From the NCBI RefSeq assembly GCF_006345805.1, contig NC_043008.1:62434001-62498000 (forward strand): a stretch of DNA of 64,000 nt. Direction: 5' to 3'. The stretch comes from Octopus sinensis (taxonomy: Eukaryota). Positions 11,994 through 59,230 of the stretch are shown one piece after another. A model generated the notes under the pieces. It saw only the letters and a list, made by a program, of their open reading frames with translations. It searched no databases and was not told the DNA's origin. Made by a program: the position numbers and the translations under genes. Every line of letters begins with the position of its first letter. The first letter of the stretch is position 1.

Positions 11994-12053
11994 TTACATA
12001 AAATTACTATGGATAAATCTCTCAACAAGAGACATTCAGTAAAAGTACTCTAG

Positions 12054-12244
12054 AGTAAAGATTATTTGCCAACATAGCGTAGCAGTCCAAGTTAGGATAA
12101 ATGTTACTGCTATTTATCCCCAGGAAAATATAAGAACACAGACAGTGTGTCGTATAGCCAGCTGGAGATGTTTCCTGGGGCTAAATAGCAGTGACATTTA
12201 TCCTAACCAGGAATGCTATGTTATGTTGGCAAATAATCTTTACT
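12054..12244. repeat. Inverted repeat (about 75-bp arms) from a relative of the 353-bp HHR element
   Basis: agtaaagattatttgccaacat...ccccaggaaa pairs with tttcctgggg...atgttggcaaataatctttact. Confidence 0.85.
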
Positions 12245-12650
12245 ATTTATATATACATACAAATATATATATTATATATAAACTAGAGTATCTTGTATTC
12301 TAAGAATATTCCACATGCACAATCATATAATACTTTGTTTAGAGCTGGGCTAAATATAATGGAGATGATTATAATATTGTCATTTGAATATGTTCAGGCA
12401 TGGCTGTGTGGTTTTGAAGTTTGCTTCTCAATGGCAGGGATTCAATTTCAGTTAACTGTAAAACATCCTGACCTCTAAGACACAGTCCTCATTTATATAT
12501 ATATGATCATGGACATAAAGCTTTTTAAGAGAATAGAAAATCATGATAATTTCAATGTCATGATTAGCAAAACACAAAACCAGTCATCTACCACAATACT
12601 CTATCATTTGAAATATATTAAAACTATGTAAACTGTGTGCAGTTTCTTTC

Positions 12651-38340: not shown

Positions 38341-38422
38341 ATATATAGGGATATTGGGTCTCAATGACACCATTACCTCTCACAATCTATATATATATAT
38401 ATAATATATATATATATATATA

Positions 38423-39154
38423 GTGACGTATTTTTGCCATTTCAATATGGCTAACCCCTAAGGGTGGATGCTACTGTAGTTTTTAGCCCCAGGAGGACAC
38501 ACTCCTCCAGCTGGCCATAGACACACTATCTGTGTCCTGTCAGTATTTGCAAAGGGAAGTCATCCTTCCCGTCTTCAACTTATGATACACACGGACTCGA
38601 GTTTCGAGGTATTGACCTCTCGTCAGCGTGTGACAATCATAGTTGTCGCCGAGAATTAGATTTCCTTCACAAATACTTATACTTTTTCCAGCGCCCACTG
38701 TCGCTGATATTGAAAAAGTGAAATCAAACAATGATAAATATCAAAGTGAGTTATATACAGTAGCGGTAACACATCGTGACGTATTTTTGCCATTTCAATA
38801 TGGCTAACCCCTAAGGGTGGATGCTACTGTAGTTTTTAGCCCCAGGAGGACACACTCCTCCAGCTGGCCATAGACACACTATCTGTGTCCTGTCAGTATT
38901 TGCAAAGGGAAGTCAATACCTCGAAACTCGAGTCCGTGTGTATCATAAGTTGAAGACGGGAAGGATGACTTCCCTTTGCAAATACTGACAGGACACAGAT
39001 AGTGTGTCTATGGCCAGCTGGAGGAGTGTGTCCTCCTGGGGCTAAAAACTACAGTAGCATCCACCCTTAGGGGTTAGCCATATTGAAATGGCAAAAATAC
39101 GTCACGATGTGTTACCGCTACTGTATATAACTCACTTTGATATTTATCATTGTT
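38423..39154 (-). mobile_element. 353-bp HHR unit, 1.4 tandem copies plus an inverted 0.7 copy (retrozyme/PLE-like)
   Basis: gtgacgtatttttgcc at 38423 and 38776; inversion at gtca (38912-38915); copies look identical; inserted in (TA)n. Confidence 0.9.
38588..38632 (-). ncRNA. Canonical type I minimal hammerhead ribozyme
   Basis: cacacg-CTGACGA-gaggt-caat-acctc-GAAAC-tcga-GTC-cgtgtg. Perfect stems I and II, palindromic stem III ACTCGAGT, GUC site. Confidence 0.93.
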
Positions 39155-39520
39155 ATATATATATATATATATATATATACAGATACACATATGCACAAAC
39201 ATATATCTACGCACACATATATATATATATGTATGTACTTGTGTGTCTGTGTTTTTGTGTGCTGGTGGCGGTTGTATGCATGCATGGATTTGGATATTTC
39301 AATGCGAAAAACCGGAGAAGGGTGCTAAGTATATCTAGTCGAGATTATTTATTCATTTGAAACTAGTGTTTCACTTTGACTACTGACAGATGCTTTGTAA
39401 GTGTAATCCCTCTGGCTATAACAAGTCATTGTACATCTACATATATATATATATATATAGATATATATATATATATATAATACATACATACATACATACA
39501 TATATATATATATATATGTG

Positions 39521-39570
<50 letters not shown>

Positions 39571-39642
39571 TACATATATATACATATATATATATATAAT
39601 ATATATATACATACACATATATATATGCATATATATACATAT

Positions 39643-39699
<57 letters not shown>

Positions 39700-40229
39700 C
39701 ATATATATATACACACATGTGTGTATGCATATCTAAATATATATATGCATGATGCATGCAATTGATCAATGTATTTAAGTAAGTATGCATCTTCTCTTCA
39801 GCTCTGTTGTGTCTCAGAAGTATAAAAGCGTATATGTTATATGTTTCCATATATGTTTTCAACATAAATGATCAGTTCTTATTTCCTTTTTTTGTTTGTT
39901 ATGTTTTCCTCAAAAGTTCATGTTACATTTCATACGAACATGTGATTGCTAGGAGTTATTGTCTACCGAGATATTTATATTTTCTCTCTCCTTAGTTTGT
40001 GAAATAAACTATTTAAATCAATATAACACATATATATGTTGTTTCACCCACACAGAACAAATGTCATCCTTGCAGAAGCATTGTTGTGTATCATGATGTT
40101 TTTATCTTTTTTTCAATATATATATACCGTACAAGACATGCATACAAGCATACATGCATGCATGCATGCATAATATATCTATATATAATTACACACATAC
40201 ACAAACGTATATATGTAATATACATACAC

Positions 40230-40234
40230 ACAGA

Positions 40235-40266
<32 letters not shown>

Positions 40267-40351
40267 TAGATAAACTGACAGACAGGCAGACAGACAGGAA
40301 GGCAGACAGACAAACAGACAGATAGACAGATAGACAAACAGACAGACACAC

Positions 40352-40391
<40 letters not shown>

Positions 40392-40425
40392 GGATAGATA
40401 GATAGATAGATAGATAGGCAAATAG
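40230..40425. repeat. (GATA)/(GACA) microsatellite
   Basis: Direct reading. Confidence 0.95.
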
Positions 40426-40894
40426 ATTGTGACATACATATATTTTTTCAGTCTATTCTTTGCAGCTTCTCAATTGAACGAAGTTTTCTAGATCTTACTC
40501 ATATCTGATGAAGATATTCCAGCAGTACCTTCTTATCTTTATTTTTCTTTTAATCTGACACAAGTACAGCCAGGTGGTTAAGATATGTGTTTCGCATTCA
40601 TGTTGCTACAACTGCTACAAGCTTCATCTGATTGCATATATGTATATATATATATATATATACTAACAATATAGGATGAAGTCCCTTTCCCTACAGAAAA
40701 GGATTCCATCAAAAAGCGTGGCAGTATATTAAAAAAAAAACCTTTACGGTTGAAGTATAAACATCTTATAATTAAGTGCTAAAGAAGGTTATTCTAAAGC
40801 CAATACACTGATTTATCCACTTATAATCCACTTGTTACAGGAAAATTGAACTGAAAGCGGGCAACTAACCTTTAGAAAATTTAAATTTCATTAT

Positions 40895-40955
40895 CTCTAT
40901 ATTGAATCAATTTCGGAATTAATTCTTATAAAGGATATATTCTTCTTCAGTAGAG
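40895..40955 (-). ncRNA. Type I hammerhead ribozyme motif (AUA site)
   Basis: ctcta-CTGAAGA-a-gaat...attc-c-GAA-attgattcaat-A-tagag. Confidence 0.65.
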
Positions 40956-41172
40956 CTTACGAGGGAACATAAATAAAATACTCACATGTGATCATATATA
41001 TATATGAGCAGTATTAGTATCCAGAAGACCCAAGTTAAGGCAACTGTAACATCCTACATATATTTTTATTTTTATTCTCTTATTTCCTTCTGTACTTCCA
41101 ATGGCCATCCTTTTCCAATATAACTCCTTATATTGAACTCTACTATTTCCTTCTAGTTAACTCTCTCATATC

Positions 41173-41220
41173 GTCTCTGATGAAGGGGTATCCATAATAT
41201 CTCTGAAACAGCTGTAAGAC
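41173..41220 (+). ncRNA. Canonical type I minimal hammerhead ribozyme
   Basis: gtct-CTGATGA-aggggtat-ccata-atatctct-GAAAC-agct-GTA-agac; palindromic stem III ACAGCTGT. Confidence 0.88.
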
Positions 41221-41761
41221 TACCTTTCTCTTTTTAAATGTCCTGTAAATTCCATCCACCCTTGGCTCTGTTGTCTCATTTAATTTAACACACACACATA
41301 CACATGCACACGTATGTATACACACACACACACACACACTCACACACACACACCCTCACACACTCACACACTCACAAACTCACACACACTCTCACACACA
41401 CACATACATAAAATAAGTATAAAGCTGAAAGGAAGAATGAATGTATAGTGACAAAAAAACAAAAACCATACCCAAATATAACAATGGAAGATGGACAATG
41501 ATGACAACAACGATGATGATGATGGTGATGATGAATATATATATATGTGTGTATACATATGTGTATGCAAATATGTATATATGTATGTATACAGAATAGG
41601 TTTCTTTCAGTTTCTGTCTGCTAAATTCATTCACAAGGCCTTGGTCACCTCAGGGCTATAGTAGAAAACACTTGCCCAAGATGCCATACAGTGGGACTGA
41701 ACCAAGAAGCATGTGACTGAAAAGAAGCTTCTTACCATACACTAGTTAACTCTCTCATATC

Positions 41762-41810
41762 GTCTCTGATAAAGGGATATCCCTAATATCCCAGAAACAG
41801 CTGTTAAGAC
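41762..41810 (+). ncRNA. Second, mutated copy of the 41173 hammerhead (G8A)
   Basis: gtct-CTGATAA-agggatat..atatccca-GAAAC-agct-GTT-aagac, with the same upstream ctagttaactctctcatatc. Confidence 0.7.
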
Positions 41811-42127
41811 CACACATACGAAATAGTTACTCTGATATAAAAATCAGATATGCAGGAAATGGCATTGAACATTAAGGGGATCACACATTAACCTCACATA
41901 TTATAGAAAATGCCACCCTACTCTCTACTGTAACCCCATTCAATGGAAAGCATTTAGTTTTTAGGTTGCATAGTAACCTCTGTTGGGTTAGTGTCATGGA
42001 AAATGCACCCAGTGTACTCTGTAAAGTAGTTGACATTAGGAAGGGCATCCAGCCATGGAAACCATGTCAAAACAGACATTCGTTTGATCTTTGACCTGCA
42101 GTTGAATGCAAAACAACAATATATAAT

Positions 42128-42380
42128 AGGCTGAGATGTGGCTATATGGTAAGAAGCTTGCTTCCTAATGACATGGTTCCAGTTTCATTGCATGGCATCT
42201 TGGGCACGTGTCTTCTACTATAGCTTCGAGCCGACCAAAGCCTTGTGAGTGGATTTGTTTGATGGAAACCGAAACAAGTCATCATGTGTGTGTGTGTGTG
42301 TGTGTCTTTGTATCTTTGATTGTCCCCACCAAATCGCTTAACAACTGGTGTTGGTGTGTTTACGTTTCTGTAACTTAGCT
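42128..42380 (+). mobile_element. SINE family A, diverged
   Basis: Head, core and (TG)n segment recognisable. Confidence 0.8.
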
Positions 42381-42478
42381 CCTGTCAAAAATTCCAGTTG
42401 ATGTCAGCATGAATCATGGACATTAACTTTTTGATGTCATTGACAATGGTGACAACGATTGCTATGACAGTTCAGGTG

Positions 42479-42512
<34 letters not shown>

Positions 42513-42762
42513 TGGTGGCGACAGTGACATCAGCAACAACAGCCATCCAAGAATTTGGACATGGAGATCTCCATTTCCAGTGACTTCGAGGGCCACCTCC
42601 CAGTGGTGTCGGGCATCAACGAAGAGTTCTCGACTACAACAAGACGACCAAAGTTTTTTTTTTTCCAAGGTCTAGGGTCTCCCGCCCCTAAGCTCTAGAC
42701 CGTCACCTAATCACCCTTACCCGTCTTGTTGCTTAACAACAACAACAACAACAACAACAACA

Positions 42763-42794
<32 letters not shown>

Positions 42795-43832
42795 GACGAT
42801 GATTATGAAGACTGGATGAATGAGTGAATGAATAAAAGAAAGTAGGGGGTAGAATATTTCCATTAAAGAAGTATCAGAAAAAATATTATTACACTAAGTG
42901 GGGGCCACAATAAGTTGTTCATATTTGATATCTCATAAGAAAATCATAAATTAAAGCAGATATTAAGTGTATTTTGAGTAAATGAGATAAGCACTATACT
43001 CTAGAAAGTAGTTAAATAAACCTGTGTTGGAACTGTAAATATTATATGCACAAAGCCACAAATGTCAGTAGGACAGATTTAATTCTTGAAAATAATTCTT
43101 AAAGAAAATTGTGGATTATTGATTTGATATATCCTAGATAGATGAAGGGAAAGAAAGCATTTGAGTAAAATAGTTATTGAAACCAAAAATAAAAGAAAAA
43201 TTATATGTAGTTTGTGCTTGAAATGTATTAAATATAAAAATGATATATGATACAAAGTAAAACGAATCTGATTGGTCGACTGGGCAGAGAAAGGGTTATG
43301 AGAAAAACTAATGTTTGACAAAATGTATCCAGTAGTTGCAGGAAACCTGATCTGTGTTAAAGAAAAGAAAAGAAAAGCAAAACATTGGGGAAAGTACCAA
43401 TCTTCTTTGTTGTTGTCATCATCATCTTCATAGAACTTTTCTGTGCTTGCATCAGTTGAATTAAATCTGTTGAGGCAGCAGAATATCTAAAGTGTGAGAT
43501 CTTGGTAGAGAGAGGACTGCTTCAGTACATGGCTTTTATTCATTTAGCCCTTTAGCATTCAAACCAGCCATATCCAACCAAAATGTTCTTCCTGTTTTAT
43601 GTTCAAACTAGTATTATAACCCGATTTCATTCAGGTCTACTCGATGAGGAATTTAAAAAAAAAAACGAAAATTATATTAAAAATTTAAAAGAAAATGAGG
43701 GCAAAAAGCACTTGTTTTTTCACAATGAAAAATCGTTTCCTAGTAGCTGGAATTAAAAACAAGTGAATTAAATACATACTTACAGCACTCAAAAACACAC
43801 CTCAAGCTTGGCGATAATAACAATAATTTTAT

Positions 43833-44033
43833 TAGTTTCAGCCATTTGACTGTGGCCATGCTGAAGCACTGCCTTTAGTCAAGCAAATCGACCCCAGAAC
43901 TTATTCTTTGTAAGCCAAGTACTTATCCTATCAGTCTCTCTTGCTGAACCGCTAAGTGACGGGGACATAAACACACCAGCATCGGTTGTCAAGCGACGTT
44001 GTTGGGGACAAACACAGACATACAAAAATATAC

Positions 44034-44130
<97 letters not shown>

Positions 44131-44290
44131 GACGGGCTTCTTTCAGTTTCCGTCTGCCAAATCCACTCACAAGGCTTTGGTTGGCCCGATGCTATAGTAG
44201 AAGACACTTGCTCAAGGCGCCATGCAGTGGGACTGAACTCGGAACCATGTGGTTGGGAAGCAAGCTACTTATCACACACCCAATCCTGCG
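43833..44290 (-). mobile_element. SINE family A, full length
   Basis: Colinear with other A copies. Confidence 0.9.
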
Positions 44291-45816
44291 AATAATAATG
44301 ATGATGATAGCAATGATGATGATAGTGATGATGATGATGATAAATTAGATTATTTTATAGTGAGAGAAAATTGCTTTCTTCTTGAAGATACAATCACTTG
44401 GAAGAATGGCTTTAACACTGCAATATATAAGAAGATAGTTTATAAAATTCCCATGAATGTACTAGCCTGAAATTAAACTTTCATAATGCTTAAAGGATGA
44501 CTGGTAGCTGAGATGTGCAGTTGGTGAGGTGAAATTGCCATTTGAAGAATATTGTGCAGAGAAACCGAAATAAAGAAAAAAAATAATTCATGAATAAAAT
44601 AGTAATATTTTGGCAAGCATGGTTGAGAGGAAGAGAAGAAGAAAAGCAAAATAAGATTCTGCAACATGATTTCTAGTCATTTCGGTGAAATGGATGTTGA
44701 ATGAAAAAATTAAATAAGTATGACATTTGGATATCGTTTGAAACTATTTAGGAAGAAAGGTTACAGGATAATATGGACAATCTATGGCATTTACATATCA
44801 TTGTGAACTATTTCTGTAAAATGAATTCACAAGAAAGCAGATTTAATGTAGTGTTTAGTTAGACACTACTGCGTAACATTTCTTGAATATTTCTCAAGAA
44901 AATATTTATTACACCAACTGTACTGTATAGAGCAAGTCACTCTATGAAATTACAAGCTAAAGGTGGGTAACAAGTCTATTATTAGGTATTATTTTCCAGC
45001 AAGACAGATTCTTTTTATTGTCTCCAGTGTCAGAAAAAGAAAGAGAGAGAGAGAGAGAAAGAAAAGGAGAGATTTAACAAGATTCTTTTCCATTGGTATC
45101 TGAGAGAAATAATATGTTTATGGTCAATAACTACTTCTCATCTACATAAATGCCCTTTATTGAAAACGTGATGTTATCCATGACGGAAACATTTTTCTTG
45201 TATATTTCCTTTACGAACCCAGATATTTCTATAATTGCTGCCTGTTTCTATAGAACAGAACAAAAGACAGAGACTAAAAAGGGACACAGAAGAATAGGAA
45301 ATAATTGTCATAACAGTGATTAATTTCCTAAATATGATCATAAGTGTAACACTCATTATAATTCTCATCACTTAATATCTCTTTGCCTGTAATTCTAAAC
45401 ACAGTTCTGACCTTGGTTTGCTTGTTTTTCCATTCTAGATGCCTCACACCAGAATTTCCTAGGTACAACTTTCAACATCAAAGCAAAATGAAAAGTCTAA
45501 TAACTTGACAATGATTATAATTAAGACTGTATATTGTAGACAAAACAGAAATCATTGAAGACAATTCTTTCTAAATTAATCAAGAATAAAAAATAACTTA
45601 ATAATTATAGTTCCAGTGCAATGTGAACTGAGTGTAATCTGGGAATCTAAAGAATCCAAACTGTCAGCATCAAAAACAAAAAACAAGAATGTAAAAAATT
45701 AATACAAAGGATTAATATAAAGTTGCAAGGATGAAATGAGAAAAAAGTATCTAATGGTTTTCACAGTGACATTATAATTCCATATATACACAATACTCCT
45801 TTTCTTTTGTTTTTCA

Positions 45817-45987
45817 AGCACCGACTACACTCTCGGAGTTGTTGACATTAGGAAGGGCATCCAGCTGTAGAAACTGCCAGATCAGATTGGAGTCTGGTGC
45901 AGCCATCTGGTTCGCCAGCAATCAGTCAAATCATCCAACCCATGCTAGCATGGAAAGTGGACGTTAAAGGATGATGATGAAGATGAT
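45817..45987 (+). mobile_element. RTE LINE 3' end copy
   Basis: taggaagggcatccagctgtagaaac...catgctagcatggaaagtggacgttaaa then (GAT)n. Confidence 0.85.
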
Positions 45988-46845
45988 GAAACTCTGCTTT
46001 TCTTCCAAGAGCAAGAATTGTCCAAGATTTTGAATACTTTTTATTTCTCCTCTACAGGGTAAAACTAATAATTATAAACTGTAGACTGTGGTATTTTCTC
46101 CTTTCCTTCATCCTCATTTCATGTCCGTCTTTAATGGTGGCATGGCGGGACAATTTGACAGGGTCTGACAAACCCAAGTCTCCATTGGGTTCCTCTGTCT
46201 ACTTTGATATGGCTTCAATAGCAAGATGCTCTTCCTTATGCAAACCATTTTACAGCATATACAGGATGCTTTTATGGGCCACTATCATTACTGGTGAGGT
46301 CACCATATAGCTTGCAAGAATATGAGCCCCACAAGAGATGTATTTATGCTAAGAAATGAGGGACTAAAGCATTAGAGAAAGAACCATAGCAGAAAAGATT
46401 TCTTGCTGTAGAAGGACTACATTACTAAACACATTTTAGACGTAAGAGCCAGGCTGATCAGGTTGGAATGGATAAGAGAGTAAATAGAATTAATGAAGTG
46501 CCTGTGTGTAACCTCAAGTTATAAGGTGAGCAGAAAGGGAATAGGTGAAGAACAACCAAGGGTATGGGTGCGTACATATTGCAAATGCATATAGCAGAGT
46601 GAGAAGCAAAGGATAGGGAATACAGAGAACTATAAATGAGTGTTGAGTGGATGATAAGTAGGAGAGACAGGGGAGAGTAGGTGATGACTGTAGAGATGGG
46701 ATGGGTTTGAAGAGTAGACAATATGCATGGTGGATAAGAGTTGGATTCACCAATTGTTCATAGGGCCAGAAGCAACAGAATAGTAACAATGACATAGTAG
46801 ACAAGAGGAAGATGAGAGAGTGAGAGATAAAGTATTTGTGCAGGT

Positions 46846-46891
<46 letters not shown>

Positions 46892-48270
46892 TTAGGAGAA
46901 GTAACTGAGTTTATGGAATACTGGAATACTGGTTATTTAGAATGTTGATCATAATATTACAGTTTAATAAATTGTAATCTAAATATATCAGAATTTAAGA
47001 AATTTTTATAATTTATGTAAAAAGTCATTCTTAGTTTTGATATAAAATTCTTTCACATTACAAACAAATTGGAAATGAATCTATTATATTCTGAAGTGCA
47101 AAATATTTGCTATTAATCTCTCAAAATGACCCTCATTCATTATGCAGCCAGACCTGTACCACAGAGTTTAGGTTCGTTCACCAATATCAAACAGTTGTTA
47201 ATTCTTTGTAACACAAATAAATCAACAGTTGATTTTAAATTTGATGAACACCTTAAATTAAATGCTATCTAAAAAGGTTACATTGAAGAAAATTTTATTA
47301 GATACATGATGCAAAAAGGTAATAGAATATTATTTCAGTGTCACATATATACAATTAGAGATTAATCTCTATTTTGCTGGCTTCCAAACTGTTCTGGATC
47401 TATGATAAAAGTCCCTGTTTTAAATTGGTTTACATTAAAACCATTTAAAGTGATCTAAATTGAAACTTTTATCCAAAATTTCCTGTTTATTTTTGGCCCT
47501 CATACCAGTTTAATAACAAAATTATTTTTAACAAAAGTTTCACAATTTTCTAAATTATTCGGAGCAAAGCAGTTTATTACAACAGAAGTTTGGAAATTAA
47601 AGGTCTAAGAAATGTATATTATTATTTATGTTTCGAATCCAGCTAAAAACAAAAATGTTTTTATGTAGTCCAGTGAGGTCTAGCACTCATGACTGGTAGT
47701 GAACCTTTTAATAGTGTGGAAGTAGATGCAACAGAAGTACTGCTAGAATATCTGAGAGTTGATACATCTAGGAAAACATAGGCAAGGAGGAAATTTGAGA
47801 GAATTTCAAATCTGGAGATATTTTTCTTGAGTAATATATTTCTGTAGGAATAAAACCAAGTAGGATAAGTGAGCATATTAGCTGAGTTAAGTAGAAAGCA
47901 ATACATATTCTAGCTTGGACAAACAATAAAAATAGAAGAGACCAAAGAAGAGCACTGTTTTTCTGAATTTCAGTGAGAGTTTTTGAAAGACTATCCAACT
48001 GAAAAATATTTGCACCAAGTATATCATTCAGCAGGTTGAATTTCCAGAACTATCTTCTCAAAAGAAGTAGAGGCATAAATATTTTCAATGAAAATATTTT
48101 TACAAAATGTCATAACTAGACAAGAACAAGTTATTAACTAGATTGTTTTTATTTCTAAAATGTTATAGTATGATATTTTGATAGATATCTAATATGGTAC
48201 CTGTTTTCATTACTGAGAATAAAGGAGAAAAAAATTCTGCAGCTGGACCTTATCTTTCAGTGTGTGAGTG

Positions 48271-48303
<33 letters not shown>

Positions 48304-48619
48304 TTATAGCATAGCTAGCCATTTTTGAATAAGCTCAAGGAAACAGACTTTTCCTTTAGTTTAAAGATATTCAAATTCTTTCTACGCAGTATTTCAACTA
48401 ATATATGTCCTATACACTTTACTTTGCATTCATTTTAATACTGCTGATTATTTGTTTATTTGTTTGTTTGTTTGTTTTTTTTGCTGTGAAGACGGTCTCT
48501 TTCTTCATCTGCTATCTTAATTCATTTTCATCCTTACTTTACCATTCAAAAGTACAGCATCATTTCTATGAAAGCCTGACAAAAGGACTAATCAAGTATC
48601 TCCAGAAAAGTTTTATATA

Positions 48620-48632
48620 ACTAAATACATAC

Positions 48633-48717
<85 letters not shown>

Positions 48718-48800
48718 ATATATTATATATATATATATGTATATATGTATATACATATATATATATATATATATATAATATATATATATATGTATATATG

Positions 48801-48856
<56 letters not shown>

Positions 48857-48869
48857 TATATATATATAT

Positions 48870-48915
<46 letters not shown>
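48620..48915. repeat. Long (TA)n microsatellite (representative; others near 18.8, 33.4, 37.3, 39.5, 49.8, 57.3 kb)
   Basis: Direct reading. Confidence 0.95.
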
Positions 48916-48916
<1 letters not shown>

Positions 48917-49771
48917 TAGATGCACAAAAATTCCTTGTGCTATTAATCTGTTTGTATTACAAGCATTTCCCTTAAGCCTTCCACTTGACAGCAAGAAGCA
49001 ATCAAAATGTATAAACTGTTCCTTTCAAAGTTTACTCTCGTAATAATTGAACTGAAGTTTGAGAATAAATGTTTCCCCATTGTGTTACCTGTTCATTGAG
49101 CAAAATATGCTGAATTCATAAGACAGACATATAGAAAACAAATTTAATTAGGTTTAATATTACTCCTTGAGAAAGAAGCTCATTGAAAATACATACAGGT
49201 TTACTGCAGGTGATCTATCTAAATGGGACAGAGTTTTTGACATACCTATGAGGATAGCATGCAATATTAAATAATTCTAGATAAAAGCGAACAAGTTTAA
49301 ATGTCTTCCATATAAACAAAACAGAAAATAGTTTGAATTTTCATGCTATTGTTTACAAGACCACATTTTAAATCTTGGCATTAAAGACGTCTAAGTTTAG
49401 AATTAAGAAGAATTTGTCATGTAGCAACTGTAGCTTTTACTTATATCATTAGAGATTCCAATTTCCTCTGAAGTTTATACAGAGTAATTATATTAACCAT
49501 CCTGTTTATATTCATTTCTATGAGTCTATTGAATTGTGTAGCTCCTATGTATAGCTATGCCTATGTTGTAATCGTTTTTTTTTTTTTTCTGCTTATTGTT
49601 TTCTGTCATATGATAAATATGTAGCCAGGTTTTTTTGTTCATCGTATATCAAATATATAACTGCATTGTATAGTCTACAATGCAGTAAAAACATTGTCAT
49701 ATTGCAATCTGCAATATCACATGCATACATACATTCATACATACAGGCACACACACACACAAACATACATA

Positions 49772-49832
<61 letters not shown>

Positions 49833-50394
49833 ATGCATATATATATATATATATGAAATTATACATACTTGTGCACTCACATATATACACAGATATGCAT
49901 ACATGTATGTGTATGTGTGTGTGTTTGTGTGTGTGCATGTGTGATATAATATATTCATATATCAATCAATGGAGATAGTAAATCATTGTATAGCAGTCAT
50001 TGAATGATTCAATGACTATAGCGAGGAAACGGTGCTTCAGAATAATTTTCAGAATCCAGTTTGATGGAAGCAGTAGTAGTAGAGTGAGCAATAAAACGGT
50101 TATAGCATTTATTTTCACCTGGTTAGATTTCGATTTCAAATCCTACCAAAGACTGACATTGCTTTTCATTTTTCTGAGATTGATAAAATAAGAATCGGTC
50201 AAGTACTGATGTCAATGCATTTGAGAAAATACTCTCCTAAAAATTCTCATCTTTTGTCTATGTAAGAAATCATTACATATTTACATATTTACAATGAAGT
50301 GGTCATTGGAAAATTTAATAGTGTTATCTATGTATAGCTGAAAGTGATGGATAGCTTATGTAAAATAAAGTATGGGGATTTATAGATGTTTTCT

Positions 50395-50807
50395 AGGTGT
50401 AGGAGTGGCTGTGTGGTAAGTAGCTTGCTTACCAACCACATGGCTCCAGGTTCAGTCCCACTGCGTGGCACCTTGGGAAAGTGTCTTCTACTATAGCCTC
50501 GGGCCAACCAAAACCTTGTGAGTGGATTTGGTAGACGGAAACTGAAAGAAGCCTGTTGTACATATATATATATATATATATGCATGTGTGTGTGTGTATG
50601 TATGTGTGCCTGTGTTTGTCACCCCAACATTGCTTGACAACCGATGGTGGTGTGTTTGCGTCCCCTTAACTTAGTGGTTCAGCAAAATAGAATAAGTATT
50701 AGGCTGACAAAGAATAAGTCCTGGGGTCGATTTGTTCGACTAAAGGTGGTGCTCCAGCACGATCAGTCAAATGACTGAAACAAGTAAAATAGTAAAAGAG
50801 TAAAGAG
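50395..50807 (+). mobile_element. SINE family A, full length
   Basis: aggagtggctgtgtggtaagtagc head through to gactgaaacaagtaaaa tail. Confidence 0.92.
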
Positions 50808-51904
50808 CCAAATTGTGAATAAAAGGGGTGATTAGTGGTTTGAATCAGACTTGGTTTAACATTGTTTTACTGGGTCAAATAGGATTGGACAAGGTAGATG
50901 ATATTTTGCAGACAGATACCTTTCCTGTCATCAACTCTCAGTTGTTTCCTAGTAATATAATATGATATATCCCCCCCTTAACCCAGACACGTCGTCATGG
51001 AAGAATGGAAGTGACTGACATTACTTTTATGATGATGACACTGATATAACTATGATGCAATGTCAAGACAAAGAGGCATACAAACACACAACATGCACAC
51101 ACACACGCATACACACATACACACACACATGTACACATATACACACACACACACACTCAAATAAATACAGTGGGCTTTTTCAGTTCCTGTCTACCAAACC
51201 TACTGACAAGGCTTTGGTTAGTTCAGGGCTATAGCAGAAGATACTTAACCAAGGTGCCATGCGGTGGAACTAAACTCATGTGTTAATAAAAAAAGAATTT
51301 TTTAATGATACTGCTATTAAAGGTTACATCATAACATGAGGATCATATTCTGATGATTAGAAAATGAAGCAGATTTTTTGGGACATACCAAAAATCTTTC
51401 CATTCAGTGTTTTCTTAAAGTGTATTCTTAGAAAGGCCGGGGTTCTCTGGAAGATTTGAGTTCCAAGAGATTAAGAACATTTTATAAGAATTTATTTTAT
51501 AAAATATTTCCAGCCTTATCACCCCTTGCAGTCATTGTAGAAAAATATAGATTACCTTAATCTCATTGGTAAGGGACCTGTGAAGCTCAGGGCACAGCCT
51601 CTTCCTAAAGATTATTTGATAAAAATAAAGAATAAAAGATTATACCTGTATAACAAAAATGGTGAATATAGAGCTTCTCAATGTAGATTCTGTGAAAAAT
51701 TTTCTGGAGTTCTACAAGATACTGTATTATTTAATGAAATCTAATAAAAAAAAATTATCAAAAAAATTATATTTACCATTTTCAGAATAATGCTATATAT
51801 CTTACCAACTCAATAAATTCTCTCCATAAAACAATGTTCGTTTCATTTAATATTTTATTTAAATTAGGGCGGCAGAAATTGCCTCTAAAATTTATATTTG
51901 TGTC

Positions 51905-52121
51905 TTTAGTCTTTCTTTTAGTCTTTTACTTGTTTCAGTCATTTGACTGCGGCCATGCTGGAGCACCGCCTTTAGTCGAGCAAATCGACCCCGGGACTTA
52001 TTCTTTGTAAGCCCAGTACTCATTCTATCGGTTTCTTTTGCCGAACCGCTAAGTGATGGGGACGTAAACACACCAGCATCGGTTGTCAAGCAATGCTAGG
52101 GGGACAAACACAGACACACAA

Positions 52122-52168
<47 letters not shown>

Positions 52169-52334
52169 TACGACAGGCTCCTTTCAGTTTCCGTCTACCA
52201 AATCCACTCACAAGGCATTGGTCAGCCCGGGGCTATAGCAGAAGACACTTGCCCAAGATGCCATGCAGTGGGACTGAACCCGGAACCATGTGGTTGGTTA
52301 GCAAGCTACTTACCACACAGCCACTCCTGCGCCT
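51905..52334 (-). mobile_element. SINE family A, full length, young subfamily
   Basis: Shares diagnostic bases (gcattggtc, ggggctatagcag, aatgctagggg) with 34751-35161. Confidence 0.92.
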
Positions 52335-52365
52335 ATGTGTTCTGTGATTTTTTGTGGAAGCCATA

Positions 52366-52571
52366 CAAGGGGAGCTGTAAAGTTCCTGGCTTTGGGTAAA
52401 AGAAAATACAGGATCAATTAATTATGATTTTATTCAACATATTCCCCTCTCAGATTCACACACTTATTGCAGTATTGCTTCAGTTTTTCTAAACTCTGAA
52501 AAAGAATGTTGGACCTCCAACCAAGCCTTTCACGATACCATTATAGCCAGGAACTTTTCAGCACCCCCTCG
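52366..52571. mobile_element. Tc1/mariner MITE
   Basis: TIRs caaggggagctgtaaagttcctggct and agccaggaacttttcagcaccccctcg; TA on both flanks. Confidence 0.85.
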
Positions 52572-54539
52572 TACAAGAGATCAGCAACAAAATAAGTTTG
52601 GAATCTGAGGTTTATAGATTTCTTATTACATTTTCATCTGGATAGGTATAATTATTACTGCAGTGGTTGTGTTTATCCTAATTAGTTTGATGGATGGTAT
52701 TTTCACTTAAAAATTTTGCTTCTACAGTTGACTACTGAAACAGATTTGTTTGGTTTTATACTCATTCTTGCAAGATTCTATCTTAAATGTTATATTTTTT
52801 GTTCTTTATTTTTGGGTAAATAATTCTCCTGAATGGGTTGCATTTTCAATGGCTTGTAAAAGAACCCCACATGTTTCCTTTATGATATGCCATGAAAGCG
52901 TTTGAACAATAGAAAAATCACTGAAATGTGGTTATAAAAGAATATGAAATATGATGTAAAGGGAAAAGCAAGATAGAAAGAGGAAGAGAGTGGATTATGA
53001 AATAAAATATGAAATTGGTATTGCATGATATAATTGCAGATGGGAAAGGATGGATTCAAGCATGATGAACAAGAATTATTTTGACTAGGTTTAAAATGTT
53101 GATAGATGAAGGAATAACGAATTTATGTGGTTTAGTACCAGTATTTTATAAGATTGTATATAACAGCATATCAGTGTAGAATACACAAACACAAAGATAC
53201 ATACTAATATAAATTATATATAATATAATATGAATATAATAAAATATATAAATTATAGGATGCATAACCACATGCATAAATAAACAAATGCAAATTTCTA
53301 AAGCAATATTTAGGGAAATGGTTATATGGTTATAGTCGATTAAATCAACACCAACATTGGGCTGGCACTTATTTTATCAAGCCTCCTAGGATGAAAGAAA
53401 AAGTAGAACTTAGCAGGCTTTAAACCCAGCACATAAAGGAATGTTACTAAATACTGCAAAACATTTTTTTTAATGTCCTATTGATTTTTACTATCCATTG
53501 CTTTGCACATAAAAAAATCTAATGCATAGAATATAGCACCATTTTTTTTTTCGAAATAAGAAAACGTGGTTCTTGCACAAAGTGATTTTAGTTTGTGATA
53601 GGGATGTGTTTCAAACAGATTATTGAGGCAAACCTGTTAAAGAGAGCCTGGCATGTTTACTCAAACCATAATAAATCCAGCTGCACTGACAAGGTCAAAC
53701 ATATGATCAGCAGATGGATTATCTGGAAATTGAAGATGAATTTATGGTTTTGCATTCGTTAGACACATTAAAAATTATAATTTAAGGTTTGTGAGTGAAA
53801 GGAGGGGGGGCGAGAGGGAGAGAGAGAAGAATGAGGAGAAGAAGAAGAAGAGAAGAAGAAGAAGAAGAAGAAGAAGAAGAAAAAGAAGAAGAAGGAGAAG
53901 GGAGAGTGTGATAGTAGTCTTTCCTAAATATATATGTATGTATATTTAGATGACAACAACGATGATGATGGTGGTGGTGGTGCTGCTGATGATGATGATG
54001 ATGATTAAGGCTATCTACTCACAAGTTTTGTCAGGCATGAGAATATGGGAACGGAAAGAGAGAAACAGACTAGGTTTGAGAGGAGTCTTGAGAGAGTCAT
54101 TGAGAGAAGAAGAAGAAGAAGAAGAAGAGGAGGTGGTGGTGGTGGGGGGGATGTGGGGATACACTTTATGGGTAAATATGGAAGAGAGTGTTAAGGAAGA
54201 AGAGAAACAATGCGGAGAGGTCGATGAGAGAAAATTGGGTAGAAAATAAGTATGGTGAGAGCAGTGAGGGCAAGCAATGCTACAGGATACCATAGAGATA
54301 GGGGAAAGGGAAGAGTAGCATGTGCATGGTGCAGAAGTATCCCTGATGGAGAAGCAGTGGAGATATGCCAAATGGGGATACAGTTGAGAGAGGTTAGATA
54401 GAGAGAGTTAAGGAGAAAATTTCAATTTCCTTCCAACTAGTTCCTCGACCTCGATGACTGAATCCAATCTTTGCATGAAACAGATAGGTACAAAGATGGC
54501 AAAGAAAGATGACTGAGAATTATGGATGCTGTTGTCACT

Positions 54540-54860
54540 GCATCATCATCATCATCATTGTTCGACTGTGGTTGAGACAATGGAATTTACCATGCTACGC
54601 CAGACTCCACGGTCCATCATGGCATTACAGAGGTCCTGTTGCTGGATGCCTGTATCCCTGGAGATTACACCAGGGTAGGAGAGTGTGCGCCTTCTGGTAT
54701 TGCGAGTAGATGGCTTCCAGAGGAGAAGAGTAGAAATTACCTCTTTTTCAGCTCTACAACAATGTCCAGCAAACTGGACTCTCTTACCCTTCATAAGAGA
54801 TGACACAGGTGGTAGTTTCCCATATATTTGCATTTTGGTTGGATGATGCTTATGTGTTCT
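54540..54860 (-). mobile_element. RTE-group LINE 3' fragment with (GAT)n tail
   Basis: IYGKLPPVSSLMKGKRVQFAGHCCRAEKEVISTLLLWKP...ISRDTG...AMMDRGVWRSMV. Confidence 0.82.
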
Positions 54861-57169
54861 TTAGATTTTGATCTTTAAATTTTCGTTCTCTTTTGACTTT
54901 AAAAATGTCACTTCCAGTAGTGATGGAGCAACACTAGTTGAAGGAGCTCTCGGTTTCAATTCTGCACATTTTTATCTTAACCCCAACCATTTTGAGGATT
55001 GTCATTTAGCTGATCTTTGTAATGGTGGAAAGGTCATTCACATGATATTTCCCTGGTCGTCAATTCACTGAAGAGGAAGGGATAAGAAAATCAATATAGC
55101 AAACAGATAAAACATTTATCAGTTTTTAAAATAAAGCATTGAAGAATTGAACAACGAAGTTAACCGCAATGATATTAAAAACTCAGTTACGTAGAACATT
55201 CAGAAAGGGCAAGACAATATTCTATACAAGCTGTTTTGAGAGAAGAAATTCTCCTTACGGGCAATATGGGTGTAAACACACCACTACACCTTTAATGAGA
55301 TCACTGAACTGTTGGATGCAAGCATTTCTGTGTCATTATGCTTCATCAGCAACATATATTGAGTTGTTATTCATGGCTGCAAGGAAATGGCCATTCGTAT
55401 TAGGATGACAAATGGTTCGCTTGCTGATGTGTGTAAAGCTTTCTCAATAAATGGGATGTGCCCTAAGCAGCATTGAATGGATCACTGTCATGTACATCTA
55501 TATTCAACATGTTCATCTACGTTTGAACATGGAATAACAACATGCTGCAGAAGCTGTCGTGAGAGAAGAAATTTTTTCCCTGTAGACAATATGGTTGTAA
55601 ACACTTTACCAAGCCACGAACAACATTGCACACTCTAAGACTCGTGCATTTCTGCATCATTATTCTCCATCATTGAAGACCAATAATTTTAACAAGACAC
55701 AGCATTTAATCAAATTCTTTTCCAAATTGTAGCACTCGCCTTCAAGCGATGAAATGTAATGAAATGTTTAATGGGAATTATTGATACATATATGAAGCAA
55801 TATACAAGCATGAATGATGTTTTATGTATGCTGCACATACATATATAAATTCAAAAGTGCACCAGGGAAAATGCTGCTTTTATCACAGTTTATAATATCT
55901 TATTAATTTTTTTGTTTTTGGTTTTGGTTAGGGTGGAGTTATTAACATCAAAATAATTTAACTTAACTCTGAATAACAGGAAATGTTGATCATCGTATAC
56001 ATCATACTTAAATGTTTTCTTAGGCAATTCTTTCTACTTTATTACATCTTATTTTCACATAATTTTTCTTTATGTGAAAGATTAACCTAATATACTTGTA
56101 AATATGAAATGATCACAACATGTGAAATCGTATCAGATTTTGCTTTCAGCAAGTATTTCACTCATCCATTGTAATCTTTTCATTTAAAGGAATATATGAA
56201 TAAATAAATATATATATATATATATATAAAAGTAATAATAACATATCTATACACATTTCTCTACATTTCAATCTTTTGCTAGAAAATTTTCCAAAATAAT
56301 CATTGCTTTACAGAGGTAATACTGAGAGATCAATTTATTCTGCTGTAATGTTATCTTCTTTTTCATTAGGACTTCACAAAAATAAGATGTTAAAAGCAAA
56401 TCAAATTAAGGACTGCTTGGTTGGGTTGCATGAACACATGATAGATATGAATTCATGTGATAAACTTTGTTCAGCATAAACAAGCACCCTATTCAATATA
56501 TTACAAAACAAATGCATTGGATTTTATGTATTTTCTAATCATTAAACAGTTATTCTATTCATTTATTTATCTACTATCTTTCTCTCTACTTTCTTTTAAT
56601 TTTTTTTTTTTTTTTGTAATTCTTTCCAAGTATTTAGGTAAGATTAAGGAAATTCTTAAAATACTTACAGTTTTGCTTAGATTCTTTTTTTTTTCTCTTT
56701 TACTCTGAATTATTCTTTTGTCTATCATATCTTAAGTGTATATCAACACAATGTTTCTGAATGATTCTACTTCAAGAACAATGACTGAAACATCATAAAA
56801 ATTAGGTTGACATGAGATAAACTATCAATCAATAAAGCTTTATTATATCTTTGAGACAAGCAGCTCAAACATGGCAACGGCTAATCCAATGAACACATAT
56901 TAACAAGTACAGCTTTTTCTGTGGACATTTTTATTTGGTTATCTTACTTTTCTTAAGTGACAATCTTTGTTTGTGGTTTTTCTATGCATATGTCCATACC
57001 GATCAAAATATACACTTGTGTGTGTGTGTGGTGTGTGTGTGTGTGTGTAAATGTGTGCATGTTTATTGCATGTGTGTTTGCTTAAATACGTGACAAAATG
57101 AATGTTATATTCTAAGTCATTTGTACTTTCTCATAACTCCACAAATATGTATTGCATGTATTTATATAT

Positions 57170-57211
<42 letters not shown>

Positions 57212-57325
57212 CATATCTGCTCTACATCTCAGAGTGTGCTTCTCCCCCAGATTTATGTATTTCTACAAACAATATATATATATATATATATGCATATGTA
57301 TATATATATATGCATATGTATATGT

Positions 57326-57370
<45 letters not shown>

Positions 57371-57464
57371 TATGTATATATATATATGCATATGTATATG
57401 TATACATATATATATATATACATATATATGTATATATGTATGTGTGTGTGTGCGCGCGTGTGTG

Positions 57465-57760
57465 AAGGCACATAGCTTAGTGGTTAGGGTGTTGCACTCA
57501 CAATTGTGTGAACATGGGTTCGGTTCCTAGACTGGACATTGCATTGTGTTCAGGAGAAAAGCACATCATTTCACATTAGTCTGCGATTATTTCATTGTCT
57601 GCCATGTGGCACGTGGTGCACCTGTACAGGTAATGTCGATTTGGTGAAAGGAGCGAGCTTATGTGTACACAAACATTTGATCTCTATAAACAAATCCCCT
57701 GTGTGGTTGTTCGGCAAGAAATTTCCAAACCCTCATACATTGTCTAACAAAAGGAGAGAC
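57465..57760 (+). mobile_element. Group C SINE variant
   Basis: tagcttagtggttagggtgttgcactcac...gggttcggttcct head with a distinct body. Confidence 0.7.
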
Positions 57761-57784
57761 CATTATTATTATATATATATCAAA

Positions 57785-58095
57785 CATCATCATCATCATC
57801 ATCATCATCATCATTGTTTAATGTCTATCTTTCATGCATACATGGGTAGGACAAGACAAGAGCCAGCCAGGTAGAAAACTACTCTAGGCTACTGTGTCTG
57901 TTTTGGCAGAGATTTTACAGCTGGATGCCCTTCTTAACACCAACCACTCTGCAGAGTGGACTTAGTGCTTTTTACGTGGCACTAGCATAGGTGAAGTTAA
58001 TTTTGGCAAGATTTTAATAGTTGGAAGCCATTCCAAACATCAACCACATTACAGTGTGCACTGTATGCTTTTAACATGGCACCAGCAGTGGATAA
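57785..58095 (-). mobile_element. Diverged RTE 3' end copy
   Basis: (CAT)n, then tacagctggatgcccttcttaacaccaaccactc. Confidence 0.7.
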
Positions 58096-58382
58096 CCAAG
58101 TAACTCACAAGACAAGGGATTATGTGAGGGGCAGGGCATTTGTGTTAGAGTGTGACAAAGAGACAGAAAGACAGAAGCAGGTGTCTTTCCTCAACAGAGG
58201 AAGTATTAGACTAAGTGATCCAGTCTTAAATGATGAATGGTTAGAGTGTAACAGAGAAATAGAGAGGCAGAAATAGGAGTTGTATGATTTCTTAGGGTAG
58301 AGTGGGTCGAAAGTGTGTGGTTACATGTGAGTGGGACACAACTCTTCTAGCACTCAGTTTCATAGACAGGTATTCTCTAGGA

Positions 58383-58583
58383 CAGTGCTTTTCAAACTTT
58401 TTGCTGGAGCGGAACCCCAAGGAAACATTCCACTGGCTCGAGGAACCCCTGTGCAATAATTTAATTGTCTTATGCACACATATCTGCACAGGAGAATTAA
58501 AAATTACTGCCGATTTTAGCAGTTTTGTAACTTCTTGCGGAACCCCTGGACTGTACTGGCAGAACCCTGGTTGAAAACCACTG
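58383..58583. mobile_element. hAT (Buster/Charlie-type) MITE, 201 bp
   Basis: TIRs cagtgcttttcaa and ttgaaaaccactg; perfect 8-bp TSD ctctagga (NNNTANNN) at 58375-58382 and 58584-58591. Confidence 0.92.
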
Positions 58584-58609
58584 CTCTAGGACCTCATATC
58601 ACCAAATAT

Positions 58610-59015
58610 GTGTAATTCCCTTACGGGACTGTTACATTGAGTTGACAGTATACGACCACTATATCGCTCCACCACCGCTTATGTCTCTCTGAGACATTTA
58701 GAAATTCAATATTCTAATTTCGGTGATCAATAAATAAATTTTACTGATAATATGATATATTTGCGAAGAGGTTGCAGTCATCTCAGCGAGCGAGACAAGC
58801 TACCCTGAACTGACGACGAGCAATAGACTCAGAAACATATGTCTTCAGGTGCTTAGTCCCAGCTGGTGGGGGTGATTGCCTCCTCTTTGCAAATATAAGG
58901 ACACAAAAAATGTGTCAAGGCCGACAGGAGACGTCGATGTTTCCTAGGGCTAAATGGCAGTGGTGTAATTCCCTTACGGGACTGTCACATTGAGTTTACG
59001 GTACACGACCACTGT
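58610..59015 (+). mobile_element. 353-bp HHR unit with about 52-bp terminal direct repeat (retrozyme-like)
   Basis: gtgtaattcccttacgggactg at 58610 and 58963; one HHR inside; ends in (TA)n. Confidence 0.85.
58804..58849 (+). ncRNA. Type I minimal hammerhead ribozyme
   Basis: cctgaa-CTGACGA-c-gag-caataga-ctc-a-GAAAC-atat-GTC-ttcagg; palindromic stem III ACATATGT, GUC site. Confidence 0.88.
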
Positions 59016-59025
59016 ATATATATAT

Positions 59026-59227
59026 GTGACCGTGTGTGTACCGTTGGCGATTTTTTTTCCTCTGTCTTCCCTTCTCTGGATCTTTCCTTCTCCTATGTTT
59101 CCTATGAAGAGCTCCACTCGAAACGTTAAACCCTCCTTCTTTCCTTCTTTCCTGAGCGTCCAATAATACTATATTTGTTCCACGTCCTCGCGTTGTGTTT
59201 TTTTGTGCTTTCTTGTTTGGATTAACT

Positions 59228-59230
<3 letters not shown>
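59026..59230 (+). mobile_element. Family D-related element with degenerate HHR (59097-59131)
   Basis: gttt-CCTATGA-a-gagc-tcc-actc-GAAAC-GTT-aaac; downstream ctgagcgt..taatac shared with family D; lies between (TA)n runs. Confidence 0.7.

Follow-up and report, generated by a model that had tools for sequence, protein, structure and literature searches.

Do two diverged, hammerhead-bearing repeat units in a stretch of the Octopus sinensis genome (contig NC_043008.1, positions 62,434,001–62,498,000; 64,000 nucleotides, hereafter the window) belong to one mobile RNA family, and how would such a family be copied? A preliminary description, made from the letters of the window alone, had seen in them a structured replicating RNA family under selection for a whole-RNA fold. 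We here assign the units to a family of ~350-nt, protein-free hammerhead repeats with Penelope-type ends, which are likely copied from an RNA of predicted fold and probably circular form by a borrowed Penelope-like reverse transcriptase (RT) into nicked (TA)n. In our best reading, the family is a non-long terminal repeat (non-LTR) retrozyme, that is, a non-autonomous Penelope-like element.

Insertion ends and shared variants in a family of 353–364-bp repeats

The two units, representing subfamilies A and B, recur as direct repeats with a period of 353 (38915/38562 on the minus strand in A, 58610/58963 on the plus strand in B). Each contains a type I hammerhead and runs through the motif order originally proposed, and the four helix-arm segments that the preliminary description had placed around the ribozymes are where it put them (Table 1). 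Phased at the hammerhead cleavage site, A and B share 211 identities over 333 aligned positions, with an alignment score of 180 as compared to 67 ± 12 (maximum 102) in 300 dinucleotide shuffles. The equality of their lengths, initially read as conservation, is real but partly chance: unit length is kept in a narrow band of 353–364, with periods of 353 in A2, 354 in a B copy, 361 in D1 and E, and 363–364 in D3.

A search of the 2.72-Gb genome returned 1,405 first-look candidates for A (best copies 99–100% identical), 2,860 for B (90–97% identity) and 1,860 for a third subfamily, C (~85%), 40 of which were scored for each. A 23-base motif common to the family occurs 3,982 times, its reversed control not once. 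From 310 fetched loci we obtained 520 distinct fragments and placed 504 of them in 16 working groups; 14 groups have a near-full natural copy, and these ~14 subfamilies are 45–90% identical. Head-to-tail arrays reach seven units with no open reading frame (ORF) between them, and neither the window nor the repeat units contained a Penelope protein match.

To what class of element do the insertion ends point? In 42 young A insertions, chosen as the best full-unit matches, the 3’ ends of the arms lie 170–181 or 214–222 nt past the cleavage site; across the family, the two end sites fall at ~171–178 (short) and 216–238 nt (tail), and both recur at homologous positions in B, D1, D3, A2, A3, C and E. 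The insertions are 5’-truncated partial tandems, often with an adjacent inverted truncated copy. A insertions are nearly always flanked by (TA)n, which mostly renders target-site duplications unreadable. All 26 classified two-arm A insertions combine one short with one tail end, their 3’ ends facing outward. The other 16 were counted as one-arm (12 with a short end, four with a tail end), although in two of the latter four (L006 and L136) a second arm ends just outside the end-site bins. At further loci, nearly all from other subfamilies, 62 of 82 two-arm clusters were short plus tail, four had two ends of the same kind and 16 had one unclassified end. This geometry is a Penelope-type signature.

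In 7 of the 26 two-arm insertions (six of them independent), among them the A insertion of the window, fold-back copying is impossible in either direction, so that in these both arms read the RNA. An apparent pile-up of 5’ ends at the cleavage site proved to be a BLAST boundary artefact; 5’ ends are uniform around the unit, and one of 68 falls no more than 3 nt from that site, as compared to an expectation of 1.35 (Kolmogorov–Smirnov p = 0.27). The sampled A arrays cross the cleavage-site junction 136 times, and 38 of the 42 selected insertions hold at least two hammerheads on one strand.

Variants shared within insertions bear on how many templates were used. We counted 43 substitutions that occurred two or more times within an insertion: 30 were fixed in every covering unit and 13 were mixed. 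Eleven of the fixed substitutions are rare, being found at one or two loci, and seven of these span both arms; in L147, substitutions are fixed in 7/7 and 6/6 units. Markers 66 and 253 were homogeneous in 40/42 and 36/38 insertions, as compared to random pair concordances of 0.67 and 0.60. A mutation hot spot at the ligation junction was considered: deviations occur in 12 of 127 crossings, as compared to a median of 3.4% (rank 9 of 291 sequence intervals), but the junction contains a CpG and shows no additional letters. The simplest account of the shared variants is a single RNA read repeatedly through the junction.

Several observations weigh against copying of this kind by a borrowed enzyme. 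The 13 mixed substitutions, in seven insertions, are present in only some units, which calls for multimeric templates, duplication at a later time or errors of assembly; some arrays show visible long-read errors. Many old copies have decayed hammerhead cores. In the part of Frangieh 2024 (PMC11167929) drawn on here, an anole Penelope element used uncleaved RNA in vitro and did not need hammerhead cleavage. Finally, no autonomous Penelope element with the 3’ domain of the family (described below) in its terminal repeat was found among 40 GIY-YIG loci, fetched from the 150 that were scored of 5,029 candidates, and 7 (model R1) to 30 (profile) loci of the Penelope family P2. Alternating variants in L028 and L147 hint at dimer templates. 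In L144, two adjacent units of a seven-unit array have five substitutions in common, suggesting local duplication or a multimeric template.

Some of these points would suit Penelope-type mobilisation from linear, uncleaved multimeric transcripts, with arrays arising or being homogenised by tandem duplication, conversion or template jumps and circles not involved. The dispensable cleavage of the anole element and the mixed variants, some of them common to adjacent units, are in its favour, and uncleaved RNA would explain equally well why 5’ ends do not accumulate at the cleavage site. Linear multimers, however, should only be able to keep or shorten an array, yet rare variants are fixed in up to 7/7 units and in both inverted arms; moreover, the hammerhead stems are kept by double-sided changes across subfamilies. 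Homogeneous parent arrays are compatible with the data, in which 40 of the 1,405 A candidates were examined. We consider this alternative unlikely and retain a probably circular template.

Predicted fold, covariation and hammerheads

Is the RNA structured beyond its ribozyme? Natural copies gave folding z-scores of −6.3 (A), −6.9 (B) and −4.7 (D1), and the three share a predicted plan. It comprises an upstream hairpin, a long arm tipped by the hammerhead, the invariant hairpin, a helix closed by GCC/GGC, and P9, a long-range helix predicted to close a multi-branched domain in the 3’ half. The sense strand folded better than the antisense strand in 14 of 14 subfamily copies, which are not independent of one another. 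The short end site lies inside P9 and the tail site 45–60 nt further on, both at the same structural position across subfamilies. The left P9 arm of B has its partner in the preceding unit, so that this helix would pair in a monomer or circle.

The helix enclosing the hammerhead had been described as covarying between the two units. It pairs in both; however, because its core is nearly identical in sequence, with one C-G versus U-G difference, the A/B pair shows pairing rather than covariation, which comes from other subfamilies. We assessed it with an arm-swap test, in which a left arm is paired with the right arm of its own subfamily or with those of others, without need for a column alignment. 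The enclosing helix scored −17.4 kcal for self against −8.5 kcal for cross pairs (p = 0.0083 with five lineages, 0.0002 with seven), and self pairs likewise did better in the middle and inner parts of the arm, in the upstream hairpin and in P9 (p = 0.017 and 0.010). With five deep lineages, p ranged from 0.008 to 0.017, the floor being 0.0083; among 123 unrelated pairs of sequence segments serving as controls, none reached p < 0.01 and seven p < 0.05. For the enclosing helix, which had been named from A and B, the subfamilies C, D, E and A3 form an out-of-sample set. The test gave no covariation signal for the invariant GACACA hairpin, the tail hairpin, the CCC/GGG hairpin or stem II.

Given 47 copies aligned by sequence alone, RNAalifold recovered P9 unprompted, with double-sided changes. 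These affect eight of its nine pairs, and 93% of P9 cells are paired; for the whole named structure the value is 92%, as compared to 34–49% with slid partners (these figures count sequences, not events). Stem I pairs of the hammerhead likewise show double-sided changes across subfamilies.

Other tests of the fold were negative, and every helix except the enclosing one was picked after the folds had been viewed. An all-pairs G-test with average product correction and tree-based nulls (57 rows, 337 columns, 60 nulls) yielded no true pair at E < 0.05, and one non-pairing match at E = 0.033. The significant covariation outside the hammerhead that the preliminary description had asked for in a deep alignment is thus missing from this R-scape-like test; since the hammerhead stem control failed too (E = 1.6), the test lacked power. 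Projecting predicted pairs onto pairwise alignments was mostly non-significant (A to B, p = 0.7–0.9), with the best results for the B-to-D1 arm (8/11 pairs kept, p = 0.004) and the C-to-E 3’ domain (15/24, p = 0.009). In the A-to-B projection even the hammerhead stems failed, so these alignments are apparently misregistered. Both approaches are weak because of the few deep lineages and register errors.

The long helices might alternatively reflect templated mutation, through inverted-repeat repair or template switching during copying, rather than selection. In this family the enzyme demonstrably generates inversions, the hammerhead arm is self-complementary enough for its reverse strand to match the profile, and the column-level statistics are non-significant. 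P9, however, is no local palindrome: it is long-range, closes the multi-branched domain and co-varies. G.U pairs and bulges persist, the sense strand consistently folds better, and the end sites stay at the same structural position. Templated mutation is therefore an improbable explanation. Selection on RNA structure outside the ribozyme, as first proposed, is supported at the level of helices by the arm-swap test and RNAalifold; the underpowered all-pairs test was negative.

The hammerheads themselves vary in quality. That of A, with a G-C pair at the base of stem II and a 2-bp stem III with a palindromic loop, scores 32.2 bits against Rfam RF00163 (Hammerhead_1), under the gathering score of 34; at gathering thresholds, the 64-kb window contained no Rfam match. 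The B hammerhead, for which there is no Rfam match, has core and stems in place and a C.A opposition at the stem II base. This opposition is typical of B, being present in 18 of 34 sampled fragments (11 lacked an intact core). A type I hammerhead is general to the unit; most subfamilies (A3, A3b, B, B2–B4, C) have C.A or A.A at the stem II base, and the youngest, A, the canonical G-C. As the window copies of A and B each hold one complete hammerhead per strand, they would not themselves release a monomer. A third family member in the window, from the old subfamily C, has no hammerhead remaining. GC content is 0.41–0.45 in the complete 3’ domain matches within the window.

Further hammerhead-like motifs were noted. 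One of type I lies in an unrelated repeat at 41177 (+) of the window, with a similar motif in L111. Directly 3’ of B, an unrelated repeat (~59030–59230) contains an apparent decayed minimal hammerhead, and its reverse complement also flanks L223. The D subfamilies (for example L191, L210 and L218) and Penelope family P2 (L113, L221–L250) both have a CCGA (U4C) hammerhead core as a family trait. In L113 (8386–9328), an inverted pair of another hammerhead-bearing repeat has the stem III palindrome of subfamily B, and a separate retrozyme-like family is seen in L062 (1728–3062), where units of ~497 bp repeat in tandem and have a hammerhead of their own with a long stem II.

Table 1 Features of the three family members in the window. 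Unit positions are counted from the hammerhead cleavage site; ribozymes and helices are predicted.
Feature	Positions	Strand	Remarks
Subfamily A insertion, short-end arm	38420..38915	-	L003; unit positions 32-353 then 1-171/174; terminates in (TA)n
Subfamily A insertion, inverted tail-end arm	38909..39154	+	Unit positions ~328-353 then 1-220; terminates in (TA)n
Type I hammerhead of A	38589..38631	-	Predicted cleavage after 38594
Outer helix of A, 5’ arm	38662..38677	-	Enclosing helix of the preliminary description
Outer helix of A, 3’ arm	38542..38558	-	
Upstream hairpin H0 of A	38689..38706	-	Co-varies across subfamilies
Complete 3’ structured domain of A, in first unit	38730..38889	-	
Invariant GACACA/TGTGTC hairpin of A	38873-38889	-	Part of 3’ domain, which also has the GCC/GGC helix
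P9 long-range helix of A	38823-38829 with 38758-38764	-	Encloses short end site (~38776)
Tail end site of A	~38727-38730	-	
Subfamily B insertion, single arm	58610..59017	+	L031; unit positions 120-353 then 1-174; terminates in (TA)n
Type I hammerhead of B	58804..58849	+	Predicted cleavage after 58843; palindromic stem III
Outer helix of B, 5’ arm	58757..58771	+	
Outer helix of B, 3’ arm	58882..58896	+	
3’ domain of B up to short end	58900..59012	+	Hairpin 58900-58916, helix 58919-58951
P9 left arm of B	58958-58965	+	Partner 58670-58677 in preceding unit
Third family member, old subfamily C	12000..12245	.	Two inverted 5’-truncated arms: one tail end, one short end

Proposed copying mechanism and candidate partner enzymes

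How might such a unit be mobilised? In the scheme we propose, whose steps are all inferred and in which self-cleavage and circularity are predictions, arrays with at least two hammerheads would be transcribed and cleave themselves, possibly as dimers via the palindromic stem III, into monomers that a host ligase would close into circles. The hammerhead would stay at the tip of the long arm. The likely element for binding and positioning the enzyme would be the multi-branched domain in the 3’ half, comprising the invariant hairpin, the GCC/GGC helix and P9. The enzyme would nick both target strands and start complementary DNA (cDNA) at two internal sites on one RNA, at the short site inside P9 and at the tail site 45–60 nt further. 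Each cDNA could circle the template several times, and two cDNAs joined at their truncated 5’ ends would give an inverted two-arm insertion. We advance a more specific version tentatively: the cell-encoded circular ribozyme RNA may have kept, through ~14 subfamilies of 45–90% identity, a folded domain that docks a Penelope RT with which it has no detectable sequence in common, and that sets the two starts, so that one circle is primed twice, once per nicked strand, and read round repeatedly. If true, the genome records rolling-circle twin priming, and the domain names an RNA element that lets circles hijack a telomerase-related enzyme.

The preliminary description had spoken of a replicating RNA. 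This is supported only as retrotransposition by way of an RNA template; none of the observations shows RNA-to-RNA replication. A viroid-like RNA that replicates from RNA to RNA and is occasionally endogenised is a highly improbable source. Size, ribozyme and a strong, branched or rod-like predicted fold do resemble those of viroid-like circular hammerhead RNAs (PMC7761336, in the part cited). The genome, however, encodes thousands of copies of the family, all those examined have ends of the retrotransposon type in (TA)n, and the subfamilies have distinct ages (A 99–100%, B 90–97%, C ~85% identity), as in genomic transposon waves. The scan of the window revealed no opposite-strand hammerhead on the unit, other ribozyme types not being sought, and the family motif had no match in metagenome contigs, a data set that may leave out near relatives. 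In contig run X3, one 383-nt contig equals exactly one unit plus 30 letters, and in run X1 three overlapping contigs cover one unit ring; the flank bins of both are uncovered. Neither was used as evidence because a circle and a tandem transcript would look alike, and an RNA origin of the contigs is a guess.

Candidate enzymes are at hand. The genome holds Penelope ORFs of 775–883 codons with RT and GIY-YIG domains, hammerheads in their terminal repeats and, before the nuclease, the cysteine motif described for the Neptune and Nematis clades; the copies of one such family are 99–100% identical. Terminal-repeat homology to an autonomous Penelope element was absent among the Penelope loci examined, and we rejected P1, P2 and other Penelope families as partners, as they lack the 3’ domain. 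The first 3’ end of P2 also lies 171 nt past the cleavage site, in sequence unlike that of the family and with the second end only ~15 nt further; we regard this as a lead only. Family copies often adjoin autonomous Penelope copies (L113, L145, L154, L235 and L120), several in (TA)n at Penelope ends, as expected from a shared target. In L114 (1474–2910), and again in L117, the 781-codon RT-GIY ORF of P1 is preceded by a 479-codon stop-to-stop frame that overlaps it and whose only Pfam match is below the cut-off.

We give hardly any credence to the notion that the copies are mere 3’ stubs (pseudo-LTRs) of an autonomous Penelope element: single-arm copies do resemble 5’-truncated Penelope ends, but arrays run to seven head-to-tail units with no intervening ORF, and a search of 160 loci found no unit with a Penelope protein match on the upstream side of its motif. 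Matches that lay nearby belonged, where inspected, to separate insertions, and two same-strand matches 5.7 kb apart (L181) have no Penelope ORF between them. For A, the stub reading is largely excluded.

Relation to retrozymes and Penelope-like elements

The comparisons below draw on parts of the cited papers. Metazoan non-LTR retrozymes (Cervera and de la Pena 2020, PMC7229834) measure 350–390 bp in mussel and 331/353 bp in axolotl. Like the octopus family, they form tandem, protein-free units of 150–450 bp, each with one type I hammerhead with a short palindromic stem III, have a GC content below 50% and a strong predicted fold, and occur in genomes with Penelope elements. The testable features of the class are all found here: hammerhead, unit size, absence of coding sequence, GC below 50% and predicted self-pairing. 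Circles and cleavage have been shown for the retrozymes of that study, whereas the family reported here is known from genomic sequence and predicted folds; in turn, it differs from them in that a 3’ domain, both conserved and co-varying, and two fixed ends of insertions are mapped over ~14 subfamilies. According to a 2020 review (PMC7761336), metazoan retrozymes lack a conserved motif that would point to their mobiliser. In the full-text literature we found no paper on the family, on fold covariation of animal retrozymes or on a geometry of one start per arm; repeat libraries were outside this search, and the supplement of PMC7229834 may list the family.

As far as these sources go, the copying of animal retrozymes has been proposed, not shown, with the circular template and the Penelope enzyme, a link put forward in PMC7229834, both being hypotheses. 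In the octopus family the start sites are given exactly, a candidate recognition fold comes with compensatory variants made by nature, one subfamily is very young, and its genome also encodes candidate enzymes that are young; the copying mechanism is therefore testable at the bench. Gene-insertion work would also have an interest in a structural tag by which an RNA circle becomes a substrate for target-primed insertion.

Penelope insertions are known to show a tail and an inverted copy (Craig 2021, PMC8557442; Arkhipova 2013, PMC3846280), self-priming having been suggested for the inverted copy (PMC3846280), and the anole element used two internal RT starts in vitro and had both target strands cleaved, by which its authors explain the signature (PMC11167929). 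The family shares with Penelope-like insertions partial tandems, 5’ truncation, an adjacent inverted truncated copy, a tail at one end, AT-rich or (TA)n targets, and starts downstream of the hammerhead; it also lends genomic support to the origin of Penelope tails and inverted copies. Unlike them, it has no ORF, its tail measures 45–60 nt rather than 30–40 nt, and the combination of a short with a tail end is a nearly strict rule. Beyond its tail, the family sequence returns to the hammerhead arm, whereas a Penelope-like element enters its ORF. The same class of mobiliser has been concluded for retrozymes by Li, Clavereau and Pollet (2026, 10.64898/2026.07.22.740005) from co-occurrence and terminal-repeat homology, mainly in vertebrates; here, it is insertion geometry and template sharing that point to it.

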